Shown: positions 20,983 through 46,188 of the stretch, piece by piece | How the letters are laid out: each line of letters starts with the position of its first letter | How positions within the stretch are numbered: position 1 is the first letter of the stretch | Notes under the pieces: model-generated | Database searches by the model: none | What the model saw: the letters and a program-made list of their open reading frames with translations, nothing else | Told to the model about the DNA's origin: nothing | Assembly (NCBI RefSeq): GCF_016026235.1 | Contig: NZ_CP065613.1 | Strand: one strand, 5' to 3' | Origin: Escherichia coli | Lineage (GTDB): Bacteria; Pseudomonadota; Gammaproteobacteria; Enterobacterales; Enterobacteriaceae | Length of the DNA: 64,000 nucleotides | Program-made: the position numbers and the translations under genes

Positions 20983-22764
20983 GTGAGCGATATTGTTTAC
21001 CTGAGAATAATCGGTGAGAAGCAGGGCGATATTTCTTCAGGCTGTGGGACGTATGCGTCGGTTGGTAATCGCTGGCAGGTTGGCCATGAAGATGAAATTT
21101 TTGCCTTTGCACTCACCAACGCCATTACCAGTACTGGTAATGGCGTTAATCTACAGGGGCTACAATTTTGCAAACTCATTGATAAAAGCTCACCGCTACT
21201 GTCTAATGCCATCAATCAGAATGAGCGGTTATTTATTGAAATCGATTTGTATCGTATAAATAAAAGCGGGCGCTGGGAACGGTATTATTATATTCAGCTA
21301 AGAAATGCTTCATTAACTGCTATTCATGTAAACATTTCTGACAATAATCTTCCTACCGAATGTGTAACTGTCGATTATCACTACATATTATGTAAACATC
21401 TAATAGCCAATACGGAATTTGACTGGTTGGCCTTTCCTGCTGGCTATAATAGCTTATTTATTCCGCCTAAAAGCCCACCTGCCAGTAATCTTAAGCCTGA
21501 ACCTCTACCAGTTGTTAACCTTCCACTCTCTTCACCAGCGGTTAACCCGGTCTATGCCAAATCCTGTCTGAAGGAGAAGGGATGTACAGATGCTGGAACG
21601 GCAGAAGAACCCGCTGAAAACTTCGGTCAAGTAGCGATTTTTGCTCAGCCAGTGGTTGATGACTGCTGTGGATACCACCATCCCGAGGCTAACGATGTCG
21701 GGCAACCCGCAGAAGCTCAAACCATGCTACTGTTTCCGGGTAGTGTGTTGGCGGCTCAAATATGGGGAAAATGGTCGCTCAGTGGCATACTCAGTGCAAC
21801 CCGCGGCTCTTACATCGGTGCGTTGGCATCTGCTTTGTATATTCCCTCTGCGGGCGAGGGCAGTGCTCGCGTGCTCGGACGTGATGAGTTCTGGTATGAG
21901 GAAGAACTGCGGCAGAAAGCACTAGCAGGCAGTACCGCCACCACCCGGGTACGTTTTTTCTGGGGAACTGATATTCACGGCAAGCCTCAGGTGTATGGTG
22001 TTCATACGGGTGAAGGTACGCCGTATGAAAACGTCCGCGTGGCGAACATGCAGTGGAACGAGCAGACGCAGCGTTATGAATTTACCCCCGCTCACGATGT
22101 CGATGGCCCCCTGATTACCTGGACGCCGGAAAATCCGGAACATGGGAATGTTCCGGGCCATACCGGTAACGACAGGCCGCCGCTGGATCAGCCCACCATT
22201 CTGGTGACGCCGATTCCGGACGGTACAGATACCTATACCACGCCGCCATTCCCGGTTCCTGATCCGAAAGAATTCAACGATTATATTCTGGTTTTTCCGG
22301 CGGGATCCGGTATTAAGCCCATCTATGTTTACCTGAAGGAGGATCCGCGAAAGCTGCCTGGTGTTGTAACAGGGCGCGGCGTCCCGCTTTCATCAGGAAC
22401 TCGCTGGCTGGATATGTCGGTATCCAATAACGGCAACGGCGCGCCAATCCCGGCGCATATTGCTGATAAATTGCGCGGACGGGAGTTTAAAACCTTTGAT
22501 GAGTTTCGCGAGGCGCTGTGGCTGGAGGTGAGTCAGGATCCGGAGTTGATAGCGCAGTTTTCAAGTGGTAACCAAACACGTATAAAACAAGGATTAACCG
22601 CAAAAGCACCTATTGACGGTTGGCATTATGGCCCTAAAGAAATAGTTAAAAAATTCCAGATACATCATCGTGTTGCAATTGAATATGGCGGCAGCGTATA
22701 CGATATTGATAATTTACGAATTGTTACCCCCAGACTACACGATGAGATTCACTACAGGAGATAA
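20983..22764 (+). CDS. Hcp (T6SS tube protein) fused to a C-terminal colicin E9-type HNH DNase domain (Hcp-ET class effector)
   Basis: N-terminal ~165 aa Hcp-like (LRIIGEKQGDISSG, GHEDE, SPLLSNAI, QLRNASLTAIHV); Pro-rich linker; C-terminal ~130 aa alignable with colicin E9 DNase (GAPIPAHIADKLRGREFKTFDEFREALWLEVSQDPEL ... HHRVAIEYGGSVYDIDNLRIVTPRLHDEIH); GTG start in an AT-rich leader. Confidence 0.85.
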   Translation: MSDIVYLRIIGEKQGDISSGCGTYASVGNRWQVGHEDEIFAFALTNAITSTGNGVNLQGLQFCKLIDKSSPLLSNAINQNERLFIEIDLYRINKSGRWERYYYIQLRNASLTAIHVNISDNNLPTECVTVDYHYILCKHLIANTEFDWLAFPAGYNSLFIPPKSPPASNLKPEPLPVVNLPLSSPAVNPVYAKSCLKEKGCTDAGTAEEPAENFGQVAIFAQPVVDDCCGYHHPEANDVGQPAEAQTMLLFPGSVLAAQIWGKWSLSGILSATRGSYIGALASALYIPSAGEGSARVLGRDEFWYEEELRQKALAGSTATTRVRFFWGTDIHGKPQVYGVHTGEGTPYENVRVANMQWNEQTQRYEFTPAHDVDGPLITWTPENPEHGNVPGHTGNDRPPLDQPTILVTPIPDGTDTYTTPPFPVPDPKEFNDYILVFPAGSGIKPIYVYLKEDPRKLPGVVTGRGVPLSSGTRWLDMSVSNNGNGAPIPAHIADKLRGREFKTFDEFREALWLEVSQDPELIAQFSSGNQTRIKQGLTAKAPIDGWHYGPKEIVKKFQIHHRVAIEYGGSVYDIDNLRIVTPRLHDEIHYRR

Positions 22765-22766
22765 AT

Positions 22767-23051
22767 ATGTTTAAAGAAAAGCTCCAGGATTATACCGAGG
22801 ATGAATTTCTTAATTTTTTAGGCGGATTGAGATCATCTATGAAAGATGGAAAATCCTTAAAAGGTAAGGAGCTAGAAATGTACTGGGATTCATTAGTAGA
22901 TCATTTTATTGAAATTACACAGCATCCGTCAGGGAGCGATCTAATTTTCTACCCTAAAAGTCAAGGAGATGATAAGCCTGAAAACATCCTGAAAATTGTC
23001 AAAGAATGGCGGCGTTCACAGGGGTTACCCTTGTTTAAAGACTCTAAATAA
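22767..23051 (+). CDS. Colicin-DNase immunity protein (Im9-like), cognate to the Hcp-DNase
   Basis: 94 aa; DYTEDEFLNFL ... ITQHPSGSDLIFYP ... resembles Im9 (DYTEAEFL ... TEHPSGSDLIYYP); starts 3 nt after the toxin stop. Confidence 0.85.
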   Translation: MFKEKLQDYTEDEFLNFLGGLRSSMKDGKSLKGKELEMYWDSLVDHFIEITQHPSGSDLIFYPKSQGDDKPENILKIVKEWRRSQGLPLFKDSK

Positions 23052-23204
23052 AGTAGATAATAAAACTATATATGGAACATCATCGCATCTGGCTAATGCG
23101 ATGATATTAATGACATAAAATAATAATGTGATTGCTCTTAAAAAACAGGTAAAAATACTGAAGCCTCATTAGGTTATTTTATCATTTTCCCGCTTTTACC
23201 GATA

Positions 23205-23458
23205 CCCTTTGGCTGGAGGTGAGTCAGTATCCGGAGTTGATAGCGCAGTTTTCAAGCGGTAATCAAACACGTATAAAACAAGGATTAATCGCAAAAGCAC
23301 CACTTGAAGGTTGGCATTATGGCACTAAAGAAATCGTTAAAAAATTCCACATGGATCATCGTGTTGCGATTGAATATAGTGGCGGAATTTACGATATTGA
23401 TAATTTAAGGAGGGCACACCTCATTTGCATGATGAAATTTATTACAGGAGATAGTTAA
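23205..23458 (+). pseudogene. Orphan HNH-DNase C-terminal fragment, no Hcp or linker, frameshifted at the 3' end
   Basis: Homology to the primary toxin begins abruptly at WLEVSQYPELIAQFSSGNQTRIKQGL...; the final HDEIYYRR motif is out of frame. Confidence 0.7.
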
Positions 23459-23749
23459 ATGTATAATTTTAAAGATAAAATAGAAGATTACACAGAGCGG
23501 GAATTCATTGAGTTGCTTGGCGAGTTTACAAATCCAACCGGGGATAACGCTCAATTAAAAGGGGAAGAGCTTGACAAATATTGGGATGATCTAGAAGAAC
23601 ATCTTACCAGAATTACACAACATCCGTTGATGAGCGATCTTATCTACTATCCTGCAAAGAAGGGAGATGATGAACCTGAAAACATCCTGAAAATTGTCAA
23701 AGAATGGCGGCGTTCACAGGGGCTACCCTTGTTTAAAGACTCTAAATAA
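23459..23749 (+). CDS. Orphan Im9-like immunity protein (variant 2)
   Basis: 96 aa; divergent N-terminal half, C-terminal PENILKIVKEWRRSQGLPLFKDSK identical to immunity 1. Confidence 0.8.
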   Translation: MYNFKDKIEDYTEREFIELLGEFTNPTGDNAQLKGEELDKYWDDLEEHLTRITQHPLMSDLIYYPAKKGDDEPENILKIVKEWRRSQGLPLFKDSK

Positions 23750-23901
23750 AGTAGATAATAAAACTATATATGGAACATCATCGCGTCTGGCTAATGCGAT
23801 GATGTTAATAACATAAAATAATAATGTGGGTGCTCTTAATAAACAGGTAAAATACTGAAATCTCATTAGGTTATTTTATCAATTTCCCGCTTTCACCGAT
23901 A

Positions 23902-24152
23902 CCCTTTGGCTGGAGGTGAGTCAGTATCCGGAGTTGATAGCGCAGTTTTCAACTGGTAACCAAACACGTATAAAACAAGGATTAATCGCAAAAGCGCCTC
24001 TTGAAGGTTGGCATTATGGATCTAAGGAAATTGTTGAAGAATTCCATATATATCATAGTGTTGCGATTGAATGTGGTGGCGAAATTTATTATATTGATAA
24101 TTAAAGGATTGTTACGTCTCGACTACATGATGAAATTCACTACAGGAGATAA
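23902..24152 (+). pseudogene. Orphan HNH-DNase C-terminal fragment with premature stop (TTA to TAA) before the terminal catalytic His motif
   Basis: WLEVSQYPELIAQFSTGNQTRIKQGLIAKAPLEGWHYGSKEIVEEFHIYHSVAIECGGEIYYIDN-stop, then in-frame RIVTSRLHDEIHYRR. Confidence 0.7.
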
Positions 24153-38071: not shown

Positions 38072-38368
38072 TCAGTCATTACTGGTAGCGCCATAGCGTG
38101 AGCGGTAATTACGCAGGCGCGGGTCGATATATTCAGGGAATTTGTCTATTGTCGCTTTTCGCAACGGTCTCATTGCTGTTTCGTTTGTTCGGTCCTTCTC
38201 CTGTTTTAGCGCGAGTTGTATATCGCGTCGGTACATCCGTTCTGCTTTTGTTTCTGGTTTCAGAGCAAGAAACGCGTCGAAATTGTTTTTGATATTTTCC
38301 AGCACCTCCGCCTTGGAGCTACCGGAGCAGTTGCGCGGGTCATCCGCACCATACAGAGGCGCTGGCAT
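38072..38368 (-). CDS. Hypothetical prophage protein
   Basis: 98 aa ORF. Confidence 0.4.
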
Positions 38369-38391
38369 AATGGGAGCCTTATTTTCAGTAA

Positions 38392-38979
38392 TCAGAAAGG
38401 AGGGTAATCGTTCTGGCTGTAACCATAATCATCTGCATGATTATGGCTTACGTTTTTAGAGCGATTGTCTTTATCTTTGAGGCTGCCAACCATGTTGGCG
38501 ATAGTTTCTGGTTGCTTGCCTTCCGCCTTTTCTTTAAGGGTTTGACCTGTTTGTGCAATAAACGGGATGCGTATTTCCATCTGGTAGCTGTCTGCGCCAG
38601 TCTTTTTGTTTGTGGTTAATACTTTCTGGAGCACTAACCCGATTTTCTTTCCATGAAATTCAGGAGCAACAAATTTACTGGCGGAAACCATATGTTGCGT
38701 TAACTGCTTAATCCCAACACACCCCATCATGGCATGAACGACGTTTGCACCAAACTTGTTTTCCGTTCCGTCATTTTTCTGAACACAAACGCTAAGATAT
38801 TGGATTTTACGTCCGTCGTCGGATTCGCCAGAAAGCTCAATAAATTTTGCGCCTTTTTCTGATTGCTTTAGTTCTGCTTCAGTAATGGTAATGATATGAG
38901 CGCCAGTTTCGTTAATAAAACCACCTTGCCCTGCGGTCAGTGCTGCTTCTTCGTTATAAGTAAAAATCACGTTGCTCAT
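38392..38979 (-). CDS. DUF669-like protein (putative ssDNA-binding partner of Sak4-type recombinases)
   Basis: 195 aa ORF immediately downstream of and overlapping the AAA ATPase gene. Confidence 0.45.
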   Translation of the reverse strand: MSNVIFTYNEEAALTAGQGGFINETGAHIITITEAELKQSEKGAKFIELSGESDDGRKIQYLSVCVQKNDGTENKFGANVVHAMMGCVGIKQLTQHMVSASKFVAPEFHGKKIGLVLQKVLTTNKKTGADSYQMEIRIPFIAQTGQTLKEKAEGKQPETIANMVGSLKDKDNRSKNVSHNHADDYGYSQNDYPPF

Positions 38980-39656
38980 GCGGCGTTTTCCTTAATTTGA
39001 TGAACATTATTGATGCCGTAGTAATCACAAACAGTGGCATCGACGAAAGAGAGATCGTTATCAATCTCATTGGAGTCAAACATTCCCATTGGGGATTTAA
39101 CAGTGTCTGCACCGTTGTTTTTCGTGGTGAAAAAGAACTGGTCATCACGGGTAAGGGTGCGAAGAACTATAGTAAACATGCCTTCGACAGTGATTTTCTC
39201 GTCCAGCATTTTTCCTATAGTTTTCATTTTCACGCGCCCCATAGGGGTTTCTTCGGTGTGCGCAAGAAAATAGACTCTCAGGTCATCTGGCGCATCCTGT
39301 GCAGCCTTAATCACCTCCCATGCGTGGCGGCCTATCTCAGTAAATTTATCAAACGATTTTTCTTCTGAGCGGCGCATAAACTCATTGCTCATCACATACT
39401 GGAAGTCATCAACAATAACGATTCTTTTCCCGTATTCGTGAGCACGCTTAATTACGGCAACTATTACGCCCCATTTATCAGTGGTAACTACGGTTCCTTT
39501 TTTTGCTCTGGCATCCCATGCCAGCCAGTCTTTTGATTTAAATGGCAGCGGCTTGCCTATTGGTTTTATAAGTATTGCTTCCTCTGGATTGATATTTCTC
39601 ATGCTGGTTGATTTTCCGGTGCCAGATTCACCGAGTATTAATGTCGCAGTTCCCAT
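38976..39656 (-). CDS. Sak4-like RecA-fold ATPase (phage recombination/annealing protein)
   Basis: 226 aa with Walker A ILGESGTGKST and Walker B-like IVIVDDF; occupies the position of lambda exo/bet. Confidence 0.6.
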   Translation of the reverse strand: MGTATLILGESGTGKSTSMRNINPEEAILIKPIGKPLPFKSKDWLAWDARAKKGTVVTTDKWGVIVAVIKRAHEYGKRIVIVDDFQYVMSNEFMRRSEEKSFDKFTEIGRHAWEVIKAAQDAPDDLRVYFLAHTEETPMGRVKMKTIGKMLDEKITVEGMFTIVLRTLTRDDQFFFTTKNNGADTVKSPMGMFDSNEIDNDLSFVDATVCDYYGINNVHQIKENAA

Positions 39657-39664
39657 AATTTGCC

Positions 39665-39865
39665 TCAGAATGGTAATTCGGATGGGGTGGAAAGAAATTC
39701 GCGCTCATTCATGCGCTCTCTTTGCGCCTGCCATAAGCAAAGTTGTTTCTTTGATTTATCTCCCGCTTTACGCCAGTAACGAGCCTCAGCAATGTGATAC
39801 TCTCTTTTTAATCGACTTAACTCTGGGGTTTTCGCCAGTTCTACCGGAATCATTTTGACCTCCAT
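39665..39865 (-). CDS. Hypothetical small prophage protein
   Basis: 66 aa ORF. Confidence 0.35.
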   Translation of the reverse strand: MEVKMIPVELAKTPELSRLKREYHIAEARYWRKAGDKSKKQLCLWQAQRERMNEREFLSTPSELPF

Positions 39866-39948
39866 TTTTTATAAGCGTCGACGGCTTCACGAAACATCTT
39901 TTCATCGCCAATAAAAGTGGCGATAGTGAATTTAGTCTGGATAGCCAT
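39850..39948 (-). pseudogene. kil: kil remnant (host-killing FtsZ inhibitor), codons 6 onward; codons 1-5 (MDQTL) lie at 41216-41230 on the far side of the IS600-like element
   Basis: MAIQTKFTIATFIGDEKMFREAVDAYKKW... matches lambda Kil from residue 6; the ATA target duplication rejoins to give MDQTLMAIQTKF. Confidence 0.75.
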
Positions 39949-39992
39949 ATGAGGTGTACTGGCAATAGCGGACACTACCATTTGTTCTTTTT

Positions 39993-40811
39993 TTAAGCAG
40001 CCATCTGATGATATTTTTCCCTGAAGGCTGCCGGGGAGATATTCCCCAGACGAGAGTGACGACGCTGACGATTGTAGAAAATCTCAATGTATTCCCGTAT
40101 TACTGAGATGGCCTCATTCCGGCTCTTAAAACGATAGTGGCTCAGGCTCTCATTTTTCAGCGTTCCCCAGAAGCTTTCCATCGGAGCGTTGTCGTAACAG
40201 TTACCTTTACGCGACATTGATGTTTTCAGACCAGACTGCTCCTGTATGACCCGGTAATCGTATGCGCAGTACTGTGAACCTCGATCGGAGTGGTGGATTA
40301 GCCCGGCAGGTGGGCGCTGGCTCCTGAGCGCCATAAACAGGGCTTTACCTGTCAGCTCTTTTGTCATGCGCTCTCCCATGGCGTAGCCGACAATTTCGCA
40401 CGTATAAACATCTTTGATGCCAGCGAGGTACAACCATCCCTCCTGTGTGGCAACATACGTCAGGTCCGCCACCCAGACCTGATTTGGTGCTGTAGGAGCG
40501 AACGTCTGGTTCAGCAGATTTGGCGCAACTGGCAGATTGTGGTTCGAGTTCGTAGTCGCTCTGAACTTGCGTTTCTGCTTACAGCGTAGCCTTAGCTCCT
40601 TACGAAGACGTGCCAGTCGGTCACGACCAACGATGATGCCATTCTCTGCCAGCTCCGTCTGGAGCCGCCGGGTTCCATATGTTTCGCGAGTGCGGATATG
40701 TGCCACCTTAATCTCCAGTTTTAGCCGCTCATCACTTTGTTTTCTGTCTGAGGGTTCATGCTGTACCCAGTTGTAATAACCGCTCCTGGATACACCAAAT
40801 ACCCGACACAT
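39993..40811 (-). CDS. IS3-family transposase OrfB (DDE)
   Basis: 272 aa rve-domain ORF. Confidence 0.85.
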   Translation of the reverse strand: MCRVFGVSRSGYYNWVQHEPSDRKQSDERLKLEIKVAHIRTRETYGTRRLQTELAENGIIVGRDRLARLRKELRLRCKQKRKFRATTNSNHNLPVAPNLLNQTFAPTAPNQVWVADLTYVATQEGWLYLAGIKDVYTCEIVGYAMGERMTKELTGKALFMALRSQRPPAGLIHHSDRGSQYCAYDYRVIQEQSGLKTSMSRKGNCYDNAPMESFWGTLKNESLSHYRFKSRNEAISVIREYIEIFYNRQRRHSRLGNISPAAFREKYHQMAA

Positions 40812-40846
40812 CGCTTCAATGGGAAATTGTTGTCGCCATTGTTCGA

Positions 40847-41149
40847 TTAACGCGTATTTTTCAGCGACTCCTGTGCAAAATACGCTGTTGCTTTTTTTAA
40901 TATATCTCGCTCAAGGCGAGCTTCATTTAACGCCTTACGCAGTTGCAGAATTTCAGATTCCAGTTCAGCCACCGTGCGGGAACCAGGAGTACCGAGCCCT
41001 TTTCTGGCGGCGGTAACCCATTGTCCTAAAGTGCCTTCAGGAAGGGATAATCGGGAAGCGCCTTCACTGATCGAAAGTTGATTTTCAAGAACCGTTCTGA
41101 CAGCTTCGGCTTTGAACTCTTTAGAGTAACGTTGGGTTTTTCTGCTCAT
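40847..41149 (-). CDS. IS3-family transposase OrfA (HTH)
   Basis: 100 aa MSRKTQRYSKEFKAEAVRTVLENQLSISEGASRL... Confidence 0.85.
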   Translation of the reverse strand: MSRKTQRYSKEFKAEAVRTVLENQLSISEGASRLSLPEGTLGQWVTAARKGLGTPGSRTVAELESEILQLRKALNEARLERDILKKATAYFAQESLKNTR

Positions 41150-41210
41150 TATTAGCTCCTTCTGATGCCATTCTATTTCAGGAAGGAGTGTCCGTTAAAC
41201 TCAGGCTACC

Positions 41211-41363
41211 TCAATAAGTGTTTGATCCATTCTTTGGGACTCCTGGCTGATTAAGTATGTCGATAAGGCGTTTCCATCCGTCACGTAATTTACGGGTGAT
41301 TCGTTCAAGTAAAGATTCGGAAGGGCAGCCAGCAACAGGCCACCCTGCAATGGCATATTGCAT
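41211..41363 (-). CDS. cIII: cIII (FtsH inhibitor), last 4 codons replaced by a stop inside the IS inverted repeat
   Basis: MQYAIAGWPVAGCPSESLLERITRKLRDGWKRLIDILNQPGVPKNGSNTY-stop; lambda cIII continues GYPD. Confidence 0.8.
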   Translation of the reverse strand: MQYAIAGWPVAGCPSESLLERITRKLRDGWKRLIDILNQPGVPKNGSNTY

Positions 41364-41462
41364 GGTGTGCTCCTTATTTACGCTTTAAATTGCTCCGTGT
41401 ATTCACTCGTTGGAATGAATACACAGTGCAGTGTTTATTCTGTTGTTTATGCCAAAATAATT

Positions 41463-42342: not shown

Positions 42343-43768
42343 TAATGCCGATCAGTTAAGGATCAGTTGACCGATCCAGTGGCTGTGTAAGAATCCGGAA
42401 ACGCTCACTTGTTTCCGGATTTTTTTATGCACATTGGACAGGCTCTTGATCTGGTATCCCGTTACGATTCTCTGCGTAACCCACTGACTTCTCTGGGGGA
42501 TTACCTCGACCCCGAACTCATCTCTCGTTGCCTTGCCGAATCAGGTACTGTAACGCTACGCAAGCGCCGTCTTCCCCTCGAAATGATGGTCTGGTGTATT
42601 GTTGGCATGGCGCTTGAGCGTAAAGAACCTCTTCACCAGATTGTGAATCGCCTGGACATCATGCTGCCGGGCAATCGCCCCTTCGTTGCCCCCAGTGCCG
42701 TTATTCAGGCCCGCCAGCGCCTGGGAAGTGAGGCTGTCCGCCGCGTGTTCACGAAAACAGCGCAGCTCTGGCATAACGCCACGCCGCATCCGCACTGGTG
42801 CGGCCTGACCCTGCTGGCCATCGATGGTGTGTTCTGGCGCACACCGGATACACCAGAGAACGATGCAGCCTTCCCCCGCCAGACACATGCCGGGAACCCG
42901 GCGCTCTACCCGCAGGTCAAAATGGTCTGCCAGATGGAACTGACCAGCCATCTGCTGACGGCTGCAGCCTTCGGCACGATGAAGAACAGCGAAAATGAGC
43001 TTGCTGAGCAACTTATAGAACAAACCGGCGATAACACTCTGACGTTAATGGATAAAGGTTATTACTCACTGGGACTGTTAAATGCCTGGAGCCTGGCGGG
43101 AGAACACCGCCACTGGATGATACCTCTCAGAAAGGGAGCGCAATATGAAGAGCTCAGAAAACTGGGTAAAGGCGATCATCTGGTGAAGCTGAAAACCAGC
43201 CCGCAGGCACGAAAAAAGTGGCCGGGACTGGGAAATGAAGTGACAGCCCGCCTGCTGACCGTGACGCGCAAAGGAAAAGTCTGCCATCTGCTGACGTCGA
43301 TGACGGACGCCATGCGCTTCCCCGGAGGAGAAATGGCGGATCTGTACAGTCATCGCTGGGAAATCGAACTGGGATACAGGGAGATAAAACAGACGATGCA
43401 ACTGAGCAGGCTGACGCTGAGAAGTAAAAAGCCGGAGCTTGTGGAGCAAGAGCTGTGGGGTGTCTTACTGGCTTATAATCTGGTGAGATATCAGATGATT
43501 AAAATGGCGGAACATCTGAAAGGTTACTGGCCGAATCAACTGAGTTTCTCAGAATCATGCGGAATGGTGATGAGAATGCTGATGACATTGCAGGGCGCTT
43601 CACCGGGACGTATACCGGAGCTGATGCGCGATCTTGCAAGTATGGGACAACTTGTGAAATTACCGACGAGAAGGGGAAGGGCCTTCCCGAGAGTGGTAAA
43701 GGAGAGGCCCTGGAAATACCCCACAGCCCCGAAAAAGAGCCAGTCAGTTGCTTAACTGACTGGCATTA
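42343..43768 (+). mobile_element. IS4 (1426 bp) with 12-bp target duplication gacactaaggtc
   Basis: Terminal inverted repeats taatgccgatcagttaagga.../...ttaactgactggcatta; identical 12-mer at 42331-42342 and 43769-43780. Confidence 0.88.
42409..43755 (+). CDS. IS4 transposase
   Basis: 448 aa DDE transposase ORF filling the element. Confidence 0.88.
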
Positions 43769-43815: not shown

Positions 43816-44550
43816 TTAACTAAATGTCTCTTCAGGCCACTGGCTGGCGATAACTTTCCCCACAACGGAACAACTCTCATTGCATGGGATCATTGGGTAT
43901 TGTGGGTTTAGTGGCTGTAGAAACACCTGACCACTATCCCTGATCAGTTTCTTGAAAGTAAATTCATCACCACCAAGTCTGGCTATGCAGAAATCGCCGG
44001 GCTCAACAGCTTGCTCAGGGTCAACCAGAATTAACATCCCGTCAGGAAAACTGGGTTTGGAACCTGTTGGTGCGGTCATGGAATTACCTTCAACTTCAAG
44101 CCAAAACGCACAATCACTGGCTTTTTTGGTTGTGCTGACCCATCTCTCCGCATCACCTTTGGTAAAGGTTCTAAGCTCAGGCGAGAACATCCCGGCCTGA
44201 ACATGAGAAAAAACAGGGTACTCATATTGTTTTTTAACGGGGGCAGATGAGTATTCGCCAACAGGTGAAAATGTACCGTCGTGGTTGAATGAGACGTTAT
44301 CAATACCAAGGTATTTAAACACCACACCAATCTCGTCAAGAGATGGATGACGAGATCCGCGCAACCAGTGACCAATTCCACCCTGCGTCATACCAAGCTC
44401 TTCAGCTAACTTCTCTTGAGTTATGCCGAGCTCTTTCATTCTGGATCTAGCCAGTTCATACCATTTCATTTTCATATCCTTATTATTACGCTCTGTACTA
44501 AAACCATCCATGCACAAGATGTATTTTTTGTTTGCATTCCAAAAGTACAT
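43816..44550 (-). CDS. cI: CI-type prophage repressor (HTH_XRE N-domain plus S24 LexA-like C-domain)
   Basis: 244 aa; C-terminal half matches lambda cI ([34 protein letters not shown] ... [10 protein letters not shown]) while the N-terminal DNA-binding domain is unrelated to lambda cI. Confidence 0.85.
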
Positions 44551-44586: not shown

Positions 44587-44802
44587 ATGAGCAACCTACG
44601 AAAATATCGAGAGTCACTGAATATCTCTCAAACAACACTTGCTAAGGCGGTTGGATGCACACAGGGAGCTATTGGGCATTGGGAATCTGGTCGTCGCTTC
44701 CCAGACCTTAAAACATGCCGCGCTCTTGTTGCATGCCTAAACAAGTTAGGCGCAAAAGTCAGTCTTGATGACGTGTTCCCTCCGGAACACAAAGCCGCTT
44801 AA
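44587..44802 (+). CDS. cro: Cro-like HTH repressor (non-lambda)
   Basis: 71 aa MSNLRKYRESLNISQTTLAKAVGCTQGAIGHWESGRR..., divergent from cI across a ~36 bp operator region. Confidence 0.75.
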   Translation: MSNLRKYRESLNISQTTLAKAVGCTQGAIGHWESGRRFPDLKTCRALVACLNKLGAKVSLDDVFPPEHKAA

Positions 44803-44921: not shown

Positions 44922-45290
44922 ATGGTTCGTGCAAACAAACGCAACGAGGCTCTACGAATCGAGAGTGCGTTGCTTAACAAAATCGCAATGCTTGGAACTG
45001 AGAAGACAGCGGAAGCTGTGGGAGTTGATAAGTCGCAGATCAGCAGGTGGAAGAGGGACTGGATTCCAAAGTTCTCAATGCTGCTTGCTGTTCTTGAATG
45101 GGGCGTCGTTGACGACGATATGGCTCGATTGGCACGACAAGTTGCTTCGATTCTCACCAATAAAAACGCCCGGTGTGGCAAACCGAGCGTTCTGAACAAA
45201 TCCAGATGGAGTTCTGAGGTCATTACTGGATCTATCAACAGGAGTCATTATGACAAATACAGCAAAAATACTCAACTTCGGCAGAGGTAA
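44922..45290 (+). CDS. cII: cII transcriptional activator, C-terminus divergent from lambda (possible frameshift)
   Basis: Residues 1-80 match lambda cII (MVRANKRNEALRIESALLNKIAMLGTEKTAEAVGVDKSQISRWKRDW...); the lambda C-terminal EQIQMEF is encoded in another frame. Confidence 0.7.
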   Translation: MVRANKRNEALRIESALLNKIAMLGTEKTAEAVGVDKSQISRWKRDWIPKFSMLLAVLEWGVVDDDMARLARQVASILTNKNARCGKPSVLNKSRWSSEVITGSINRSHYDKYSKNTQLRQR

Positions 45291-46188
45291 CTTTGCCGGA
45301 CAGGAGCGTAATGTGGCAGATCTCGATGATGGTTACGCCAGATTATCAAATATGCTGCTTGAGGCTTATTCAGGCGCAGATCTGACCAAGCGACAGTTTA
45401 AAGTGCTGCTTGCCATTCTGCGTAAAACCTATGGGTGGAATAAACCAATGGACAGAATCACTGATTCTCAACTTAGCGAGTTGACAAAGTTACCTGTCAA
45501 ACGATGCAATGAAGCCAAGTTAGAACTCGTCAGAATGAATATTATCAAGCAGCAAGGCGGCATGTTTGGACCAAACAAAAACATCTCAGAATGGTGTATC
45601 CCTCAAAACGAGGGGGGTTCCCCTAAAATGAGGGATATCCCTCAAAACGAGGGAAAATCCCCTAAAACGAGGGATAAAACATCCCTCAAATTGGGGGATT
45701 GCTATCCCTCAAAACAGGGGGACACAAAAGACACTATTACAAAAGAAAAAAGAAAAGATTATTCGTCCGAGAATTCTGGCGAATCCTCTGACCAGCCAGA
45801 AAACGATCTTTCTGTGGTTAAACCGGATGCTGCAATTCAGAGCGGCAGCAAGTGGGGAACAGCAGAAGACCTGACCGCCGCAGAGTGGATGTTTGACATG
45901 GTGAAGACTATCGCGCCATCAGCCAGAAAACCGAATTTTGCTGGGTGGGCTAACGATATCCGCCTGATGCGTGAACGTGACGGACGTAACCACCGCGATA
46001 TGTGTGTGCTTTTCCGCTGGGCCTGCCAGGACAACTTCTGGTCCGGTAACGTGCTAAGTCCGGCCAAACTCCGCGACAAGTGGACCCAGCTCGAAATCAA
46101 CCGTAACAAGCAACAGGCAGGCGTGACAGCCAGCAAACCAAAACTCGACCTGACAAACACTGACTGGATTTACGGGGTGGATTTATGA
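45250..46188 (+). CDS. O: Replication initiator O (lambda-type)
   Basis: 312 aa, matches lambda O with a 13-aa insertion in the iteron-encoded segment. Confidence 0.9.
   Translation: MTNTAKILNFGRGNFAGQERNVADLDDGYARLSNMLLEAYSGADLTKRQFKVLLAILRKTYGWNKPMDRITDSQLSELTKLPVKRCNEAKLELVRMNIIKQQGGMFGPNKNISEWCIPQNEGGSPKMRDIPQNEGKSPKTRDKTSLKLGDCYPSKQGDTKDTITKEKRKDYSSENSGESSDQPENDLSVVKPDAAIQSGSKWGTAEDLTAAEWMFDMVKTIAPSARKPNFAGWANDIRLMRERDGRNHRDMCVLFRWACQDNFWSGNVLSPAKLRDKWTQLEINRNKQQAGVTASKPKLDLTNTDWIYGVDL
45598..45765 (+). promoter_or_regulatory. ori-lambda: six iteron-like 18-19 bp repeats plus AT-rich region, inside O
   Basis: atccctcaaaacgagggg / ttcccctaaaatgaggga / atccctcaaaacgaggga / atcccctaaaacgaggga / atccctcaaattggggga / atccctcaaaacaggggga then A-rich tract. 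Confidence 0.8.

Follow-up and report, generated by a model that had tools for sequence, protein, structure and literature searches.

A frameshifted cII allele in a defective lambdoid prophage of Escherichia coli

CII proteins and their C-terminal tails

The CII protein of phage lambda (NP_040630, 97 aa; PF05269; PDB 1XWR, 1ZPQ and 1ZS4) is the natural point of comparison for the gene described here, and several versions of it lacking the native tail have been engineered. Its hallmarks are activation of the promoters pRE, pI and pAQ and a fast turnover in the cell. The truncated proteins cII1-87 and cII1-92 complement fully and cII1-77 fails (PMC5869508). The C-terminal 16 residues are the signal for degradation by FtsH, according to the summary of Kobiler 2002 that is given in PMC5869508. 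E. coli prophages also encode a form of CII that is 98 aa long (WP_089503326 and WP_000251074, ending in ...KKRPVCKTERSEQIQMEF), and a further in-frame tail (...KKRPVWQTERSEQIQMEF) is found on contig L007 of IMG/VR.

Here, we analysed a stretch of 64,000 nucleotides of the E. coli contig NZ_CP065613.1, hereafter the window, and in particular a cII reading frame of 122 aa at 44922-45290 on the plus strand. Aligned with lambda CII, its residues 1-81 are of the lambda type, with the single substitution A76S, and the remaining 41 are read in another frame; the first changed residue is 82, K to N. A preliminary description had placed the end of the match at residue 80. The divergence of frame that it reported is there, and the match reaches K81 in both the protein and the DNA alignments. 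The same description was right that EQIQMEF is still encoded in another frame: the terminal codons of a lambda-type cII, stop included, are intact at 45194-45217 on the plus strand (GAA CAA ATC CAG ATG GAG TTC TGA) and out of frame with the ATG at 44922. The lambda-type tail (...TERSEQIQMEF) is thus not in frame, and the product ends in ...KNTQLRQR instead. This novel tail does run over the start of the replication gene O (45250-46188, plus strand, 312 aa, TIGR01610), as had also been claimed, with the cII stop ending at 45290 and the first 41 nt of O lying under the extended cII frame.

In spite of its unusual end, the product is recognisably a CII protein. A match to PF05269 is precomputed for exactly this sequence of 122 aa, and a phmmer comparison with PDB 1XWR gave E = 1.5e-47 over residues 1-83; a scan of NCBIfam assigned no family to it. 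The gene occupies the place of cII in lambda, between cro/nutR/tR1 and O and opposite the antisense oop/pO, and at its 5' end it keeps the sequence of the TTGC-N6-TTGC direct repeat (44931-44944, minus strand). We take this repeat to be the CII-binding motif of pRE, as in established lambda biology. Unlike lambda CII, the allele loses its frame after K81, so that the C-terminal 16-17 residues, degradation signal included, give way to 41 unrelated ones. It thereby resembles the engineered truncations (cII1-87, cII1-92 and cII1-77 of PMC5869508, and the tag deletions of Kobiler et al. 2002), which, as outlined in PMC5869508, lack the native tail and keep the helical core. Yet, those proteins have clean ends, whereas the allele of the window adds a foreign tail of 41 residues and leaves the native sequence between the active 1-87 and the inactive 1-77.

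The A-run deletion and the oop terminator

The preliminary description had called for an alignment with the cII DNA of lambda, and we found that NC_001416 differs from the window at this point. Two indels separate them, and both are also seen against an E. coli prophage. In the first, AATAAAAAAC of the lambda A-run reads AATAAAAAC in the window, a loss of 1 nt at 45162-45166; in the second, lambda GCCCGGCGGCAACC corresponds to GCCCGGTGTGGCAAACC, a gain of 3 nt. The net difference is +2, i.e. the window has 401 bases where all full-length matches in the phage and E. coli collections have 399. The shift of frame had been attributed to changes in the A-run and in the adjacent GC-rich stretch together. 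The deletion that turns A6 into A5 accounts for it, and the change in the GC-rich stretch does not, as the +3 is in frame elsewhere. The A5 run (45162-45166, plus strand) is A6 in lambda and in all in-frame relatives, and is the sole frame-breaking deletion. The second change places TGTGGCAAA at 45174-45182 on the plus strand, where lambda has CGGCAA.

Several relatives carry the +3 without any loss of frame. When the site was searched with a query of 61 nt, the matches in E. coli prophages were 62 nt long, which exceeds the window by one base and lambda by three. CII proteins of 98 aa ending in RPVCKTERSEQIQMEF are annotated in the prophages of E. coli no107 and S51 that carry the +3. Those introduced above likewise share with the window the +3 in the oop-terminator loop; they differ from it in having A6, in frame. 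A scan of IMG/VR with a 23-mer of the window, CGCCCGGTGTGGCAAACCGAGCG, returned a single matching contig, L007, in which these 23 nt are preceded by A6, read in frame as ...TNKKRPVWQTERSEQIQMEF (...LTNKKRPVWQTERSEQIQMEF-stop) and followed by the same O start. L007 is thus identical to the window over the 23 nt and the downstream O start, and unlike it in its A6, its intact frame and the other cII body that lies upstream of CTCACCAAT. Since these A6 relatives, the 98-aa CII proteins and L007, have the +3 in frame, this change is natural variation that leaves the frame intact. What breaks the frame is a single event, the disappearance of one A of A6, to which the neighbouring +3 is unrelated.

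Both changes fall in the terminator of the antisense RNA, in its loop and its U-tract, which the preliminary description had overlooked. The equivalent of oop is encoded at 45161-45239 on the minus strand, by homology with lambda 38675-38599, and is 79 nt long (77 in lambda). Its pO-like promoter (TTGAGT, 17 nt, CATAAT; 45247-45275, minus strand) is identical to that of lambda and points leftward from inside the start of O. Relative to lambda, the tO hairpin (about 45165-45191, minus strand) has an unchanged stem, a loop of 7 nt in place of 4 and U5 in place of U6: the +3 polymorphism lies in the loop, and the A that was lost corresponds to a U of the U-tract. The predicted folds are at -28.5 kcal/mol in lambda and -27.8 in the window for the whole oop, and at -14.7 and -14.0 kcal/mol, respectively, for the terminator hairpin. 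A simple consensus scan called tO in lambda and not in the window, because the tail of the latter is one T short of the rule used, a marginal result that does not prove a defect. Rfam holds no oop family, and its only real match nearby is the cIII thermoregulator.

CII varies at residues 85-87 (AA, VCK or VWQ), whose codons lie where the antisense strand forms the terminator loop; the codons on either side, which form its stem, are conserved (L001, L003, L004 and L007). The A6 run may persist in cII because the oop terminator uses it as its U-tract, a dual role that would leave the gene with a slippage-prone tract at codons 81-82. This might explain both the persistence of the run and the occasional appearance of the same frameshift in unrelated prophages. 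In L007, the coding sequence of positions 1-60, ahead of CTCACCAAT, is unrelated and continues in frame into a lambda-type CII tail, which points to a boundary of mosaic recombination at the oop/tO region.

A prophage in decay

The window begins with chromosome of the E. coli/Shigella type (1-32808; secA ... aroP, tssD, pdhR-aceEF-lpdA and a truncated yacH), 99.9% identical to E. coli FDAARGOS_943 over the stretch compared. The lambdoid prophage begins at 32791. Its left junction lies inside yacH, at 32791-32808, and consists of TTCTTATCAGTAAGTTGA, which is common to the chromosomal and the phage homologies and resembles the attP core of lambda, TTTTTATACTAAGTTGG; the sequence across the prophage/yacH junction is TTCTTATCAGTAAGTTGACATTATAAAAAAGC. 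This suggests that the prophage integrated at a secondary attachment site, truncating yacH. The region around cII aligns collinearly with lambda 38247-40642 (95% identity). That alignment has 43 gap positions, presumably in the iteron/ori region. O is a protein of 312 aa here and of 299 aa in lambda.

Three lesions outside cII affect this prophage, and the preliminary description had overlooked these inactivating changes. A lambda-type int (32877-33946, minus strand) is split into frames of 131 and 230 aa by a deletion of 1 nt at lambda position 28553. An IS3-family element of 1264 bp, IS600 in the RefSeq naming (39950-41213, minus strand), sits at lambda 33314-33316 with a duplication of 3 bp; it disrupts kil and the last codons of cIII, where kil overlaps the 3' end of cIII. 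Just upstream of it, the thermoregulator RNA of cIII is intact (41318-41376; Rfam RF01804, 88.5 bits). An IS4-family element of 1426 bp (42343-43768, plus strand), flanked by a 12-bp direct repeat, GACACTAAGGTC, that represents its duplication, occupies the place of rexAB in lambda, with the nutL/pL side on one flank and the 3' end of cI on the other. The reading frames of cI, cro, O, P and ren are intact, among them a cI-type repressor with HTH and S24 peptidase domains and a non-lambda immunity specificity (43816-44550, minus strand) and a cro-type HTH protein of 71 aa (44587-44802, plus strand).

The split int has a distribution of its own. Exactly the same N-terminal product of 131 aa, frameshifted end included, is found on at least 10 contigs of other assemblies (loci L011-L016). 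There, the split gene adjoins a pectinesterase gene, and the DNA is 98.0-98.5% identical to the window. We take this gene to be ybhC, on the canonical attB side of lambda. Given this degree of identity and the pectinesterase neighbour, the same int lesion is common to diverged prophages at different chromosomal sites.

We think it quite probable that the cII allele results from a genuine deletion of one A in the homopolymer and is turning, without selection, into a pseudogene of a decaying prophage. Slipped-strand mispairing during replication of the resident prophage is the likely origin, removing one A from a run that encodes Lys81-Lys82 and serves, read from the other strand, as U-tract of the oop terminator. 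The loss shifts the frame after K81, exchanging the 17-residue tail of the 98-aa parental type (KRPVWQTERSEQIQMEF) for 41 unrelated and strongly basic residues, and translation would continue through the oop/pO region and then 41 nt into O. The prophage is already grounded and decaying, with its int frameshifted, IS600 in kil/cIII and IS4 beside cI, and the allele would be decaying neutrally, free of selection, in an element unable to make Int. CII is needed only to establish lysogeny and is dispensable for maintaining it. Since the prophage is already defective and can be maintained without the protein, the allele is most likely an unselected pseudogene. But this has to be set against the intact frames of cI, cro, O, P and ren, which show that degradation is not widespread in the immunity and replication module and so count against decay.

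The cII frameshift is an ordinary homopolymer lesion, of an already known kind, in a defective prophage. Its significance beyond annotation is small. For annotation, it means that the record of this defective lambdoid prophage should show a cII that is frameshifted, either a pseudogene or a variant, and no new protein.

Selection, recurrence and the reliability of the base call

What would the 122-aa protein do, if it is made? It would keep the DNA-binding and tetramer core, residues 1-81, and lose the FtsH degron. A tryptic core of CII ending near residue 81-82 is reportedly still tetrameric and resists HflB. The structure of the cII-DNA complex, PDB 1ZS4, was obtained with a construct of 83 residues that matches residues 4-81 of the query. 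With a count of about +7, the new tail, NARCGKPSVLNKSRWSSEVITGSINRSHYDKYSKNTQLRQR, is strongly basic; it has a polar/charged end, ...QLRQR, whereas the native tail ends in the apolar MEF. Judged from these features, the protein is predicted to bind DNA, to be active and to be longer-lived than the wild type, escaping FtsH. The altered stability that the preliminary description had put forward thus seems biochemically plausible, and the product, if active and stable, would be the natural equivalent of the CII mutants that were engineered to lack the degron. Residue 81, at which the native sequence ends, falls inside the interval 77-87 that is unmapped for activity in PMC5869508, and the 41 foreign residues may misfold, disturb folding or attract other proteases. 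Ribosomes on the extended cII frame would also pass over the ribosome-binding site of O.

The same frameshift occurs in other backgrounds. A homology search with the 122-aa product returned further products that switch, at this position, to the alternative frame seen in the window. One has a lambda-type loop (P0002, 121 aa), another a VCK-type loop (P0004, 114 aa), and P0007, P0009 and P0010 (143-195 aa) have another downstream module; all carry A5 in place of A6. P0009 lies on an NCBI contig of 4.75 Mb; its prophage has an immunity region of the P22-Cro type and a replication module of the DnaB type, and A5 was confirmed there by alignment. The A6-to-A5 change is also carried by the cII alleles L010, from GCA_045583525.1, and NZ_CP163516.1. 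These alleles have lost the same base as the window and continue in the same alternative frame; they differ from it in their loop sequences and downstream modules, which is why the A5 products of other prophages range from 114 to 195 aa. Variants with A7 exist as well (P0015 and P0016). Frameshifting of the A-run is recurrent but uncommon, as expected of occasional slippage without selection.

The exact variant of the window is itself rare. It is absent from 5,426 complete E. coli genomes, the best of which reaches 97.8% identity over 401 nt and 93.5% over the 61-nt core, and exact-pattern scans of the GTDB representative genomes (31-mer and 23-mer) and of JGI metagenomes (23-mer) gave no match. 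The repaired protein of 98 aa is absent from a collection of 15 billion proteins, and our searches returned no intact direct ancestor and no sister prophage combining the same N-terminal sequence with A6.

One might speculate that the allele is instead a functional, selected variant of altered stability. With the degron lost and the core active, CII would accumulate and lysogenisation would be frequent, hence the discovery of the allele in a prophage. C-terminal cII mutants are said to raise the frequency of lysogenisation. The conservation of residues 1-81, which correspond to the DNA-binding construct of 1ZS4, and the substitution of a basic ...QLRQR for the apolar MEF would both suit such a variant, as would the recurrence of the frameshift in other backgrounds. 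The truncation experiments bear on it in both directions: proteins cut back to residue 87 still complement fully and degradation is, as outlined there, signalled by the C-terminal 16 residues, but cII1-77 is inactive, which places the boundary of activity between residues 77 and 87, and stable CII is toxic when expressed (PMC5869508). The allele is also rare: the lambda-type A5 form has one full match among the approximately 1100 complete RefSeq E. coli genomes with lambda-type sequence. Length and sequence of the tail also vary with the background (121, 122, 114, 143 and 195 aa), which looks like a by-product of the frame. Since this prophage has other inactivating lesions, int included, decay is favoured over a selected variant, which we regard as unlikely. 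A more general version would make A6, kept in place by its second role as U-tract of the oop RNA, a recurrent contingency site, where the loss of an A would repeatedly yield an FtsH-resistant, active CII and high-frequency lysogenisers, to be found preferentially as resident prophages. We consider this version quite improbable.

The preliminary description had also raised the possibility of a sequencing error. In this case the true sequence would have A6 and the cII gene would be intact, with 98 aa. Errors in the length of homopolymers are the commonest indel error in long-read assemblies, the continuity of a 64-kb window across several IS copies suggests that this is such an assembly, and int holds a second deletion of 1 nt. 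Nevertheless, the exact product of 122 aa is present in the collection of 15 billion proteins, where it was called on 5 contigs of other assemblies, among them one of NCBI GCA_001907385.1 and one of the Logan assembly for run SRR30892832. Two of the 5 contigs were retrieved, and they match the window at 100% identity, the site included, over 5475 and 3743 bp. They are short, and one ends inside the IS4 element, as is typical of IS-bounded contigs from short reads, which suggests short-read assemblies. Short reads distinguish A5 from A6 accurately. The split int product likewise recurs in other assemblies. Because these assemblies agree with the window, a one-off homopolymer miscall is very unlikely. 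The contigs with the 122-aa product may all belong to one clonal lineage; their agreement shows that the base call is reproducible, and not that the mutation arose repeatedly in this background.

Weakest of all, and extremely unlikely, is recoding by a -1 ribosomal slip on U AAA AAC (45161-45167), which would restore the native frame as ...TNKN-RPVWQTERSEQIQMEF and yield a CII of 98 aa (K82N) beside the product of 122 aa: the cII-sense strand can form a hairpin just downstream (-11.5 kcal/mol), but the heptamer departs from the canonical X XXY YYZ, the Lys tRNA in the P site would be left to pair with UAA after the slip, the hairpin begins within the slippery site, where -1 frameshift sites have a spacer of 5-9 nt between the slippery heptamer and the stimulatory structure, and all common relatives have A6 and need no recoding. 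Programmed -1 frameshifting was thus rejected on the anatomy of the site, with its non-canonical heptamer and its hairpin without spacer, and so was transcriptional slippage, for which A5 is too short.

Phage mEp332 (PV340541.1) was considered as a viable phage with the same allele and rejected, as its frameshift lies at another homopolymer, a change from G6 to G5 near cII codon 61. The 2025 record of this phage (L017, 563-988) annotates cII as a product of 141 aa that runs into the start of O. The change is either a mutation of the clear-plaque type in the stock or a sequencing error.

In the chromosomal part of the window, 20983-24000 holds a reading frame of 593 aa whose match in RefSeq carries the annotation of type VI secretion tube protein TssD. 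Behind tssD, the E. coli record with this match has several small genes that are labelled there as bacteriocin immunity proteins, and the locus looks like an Hcp-toxin fusion with an array of immunity genes.
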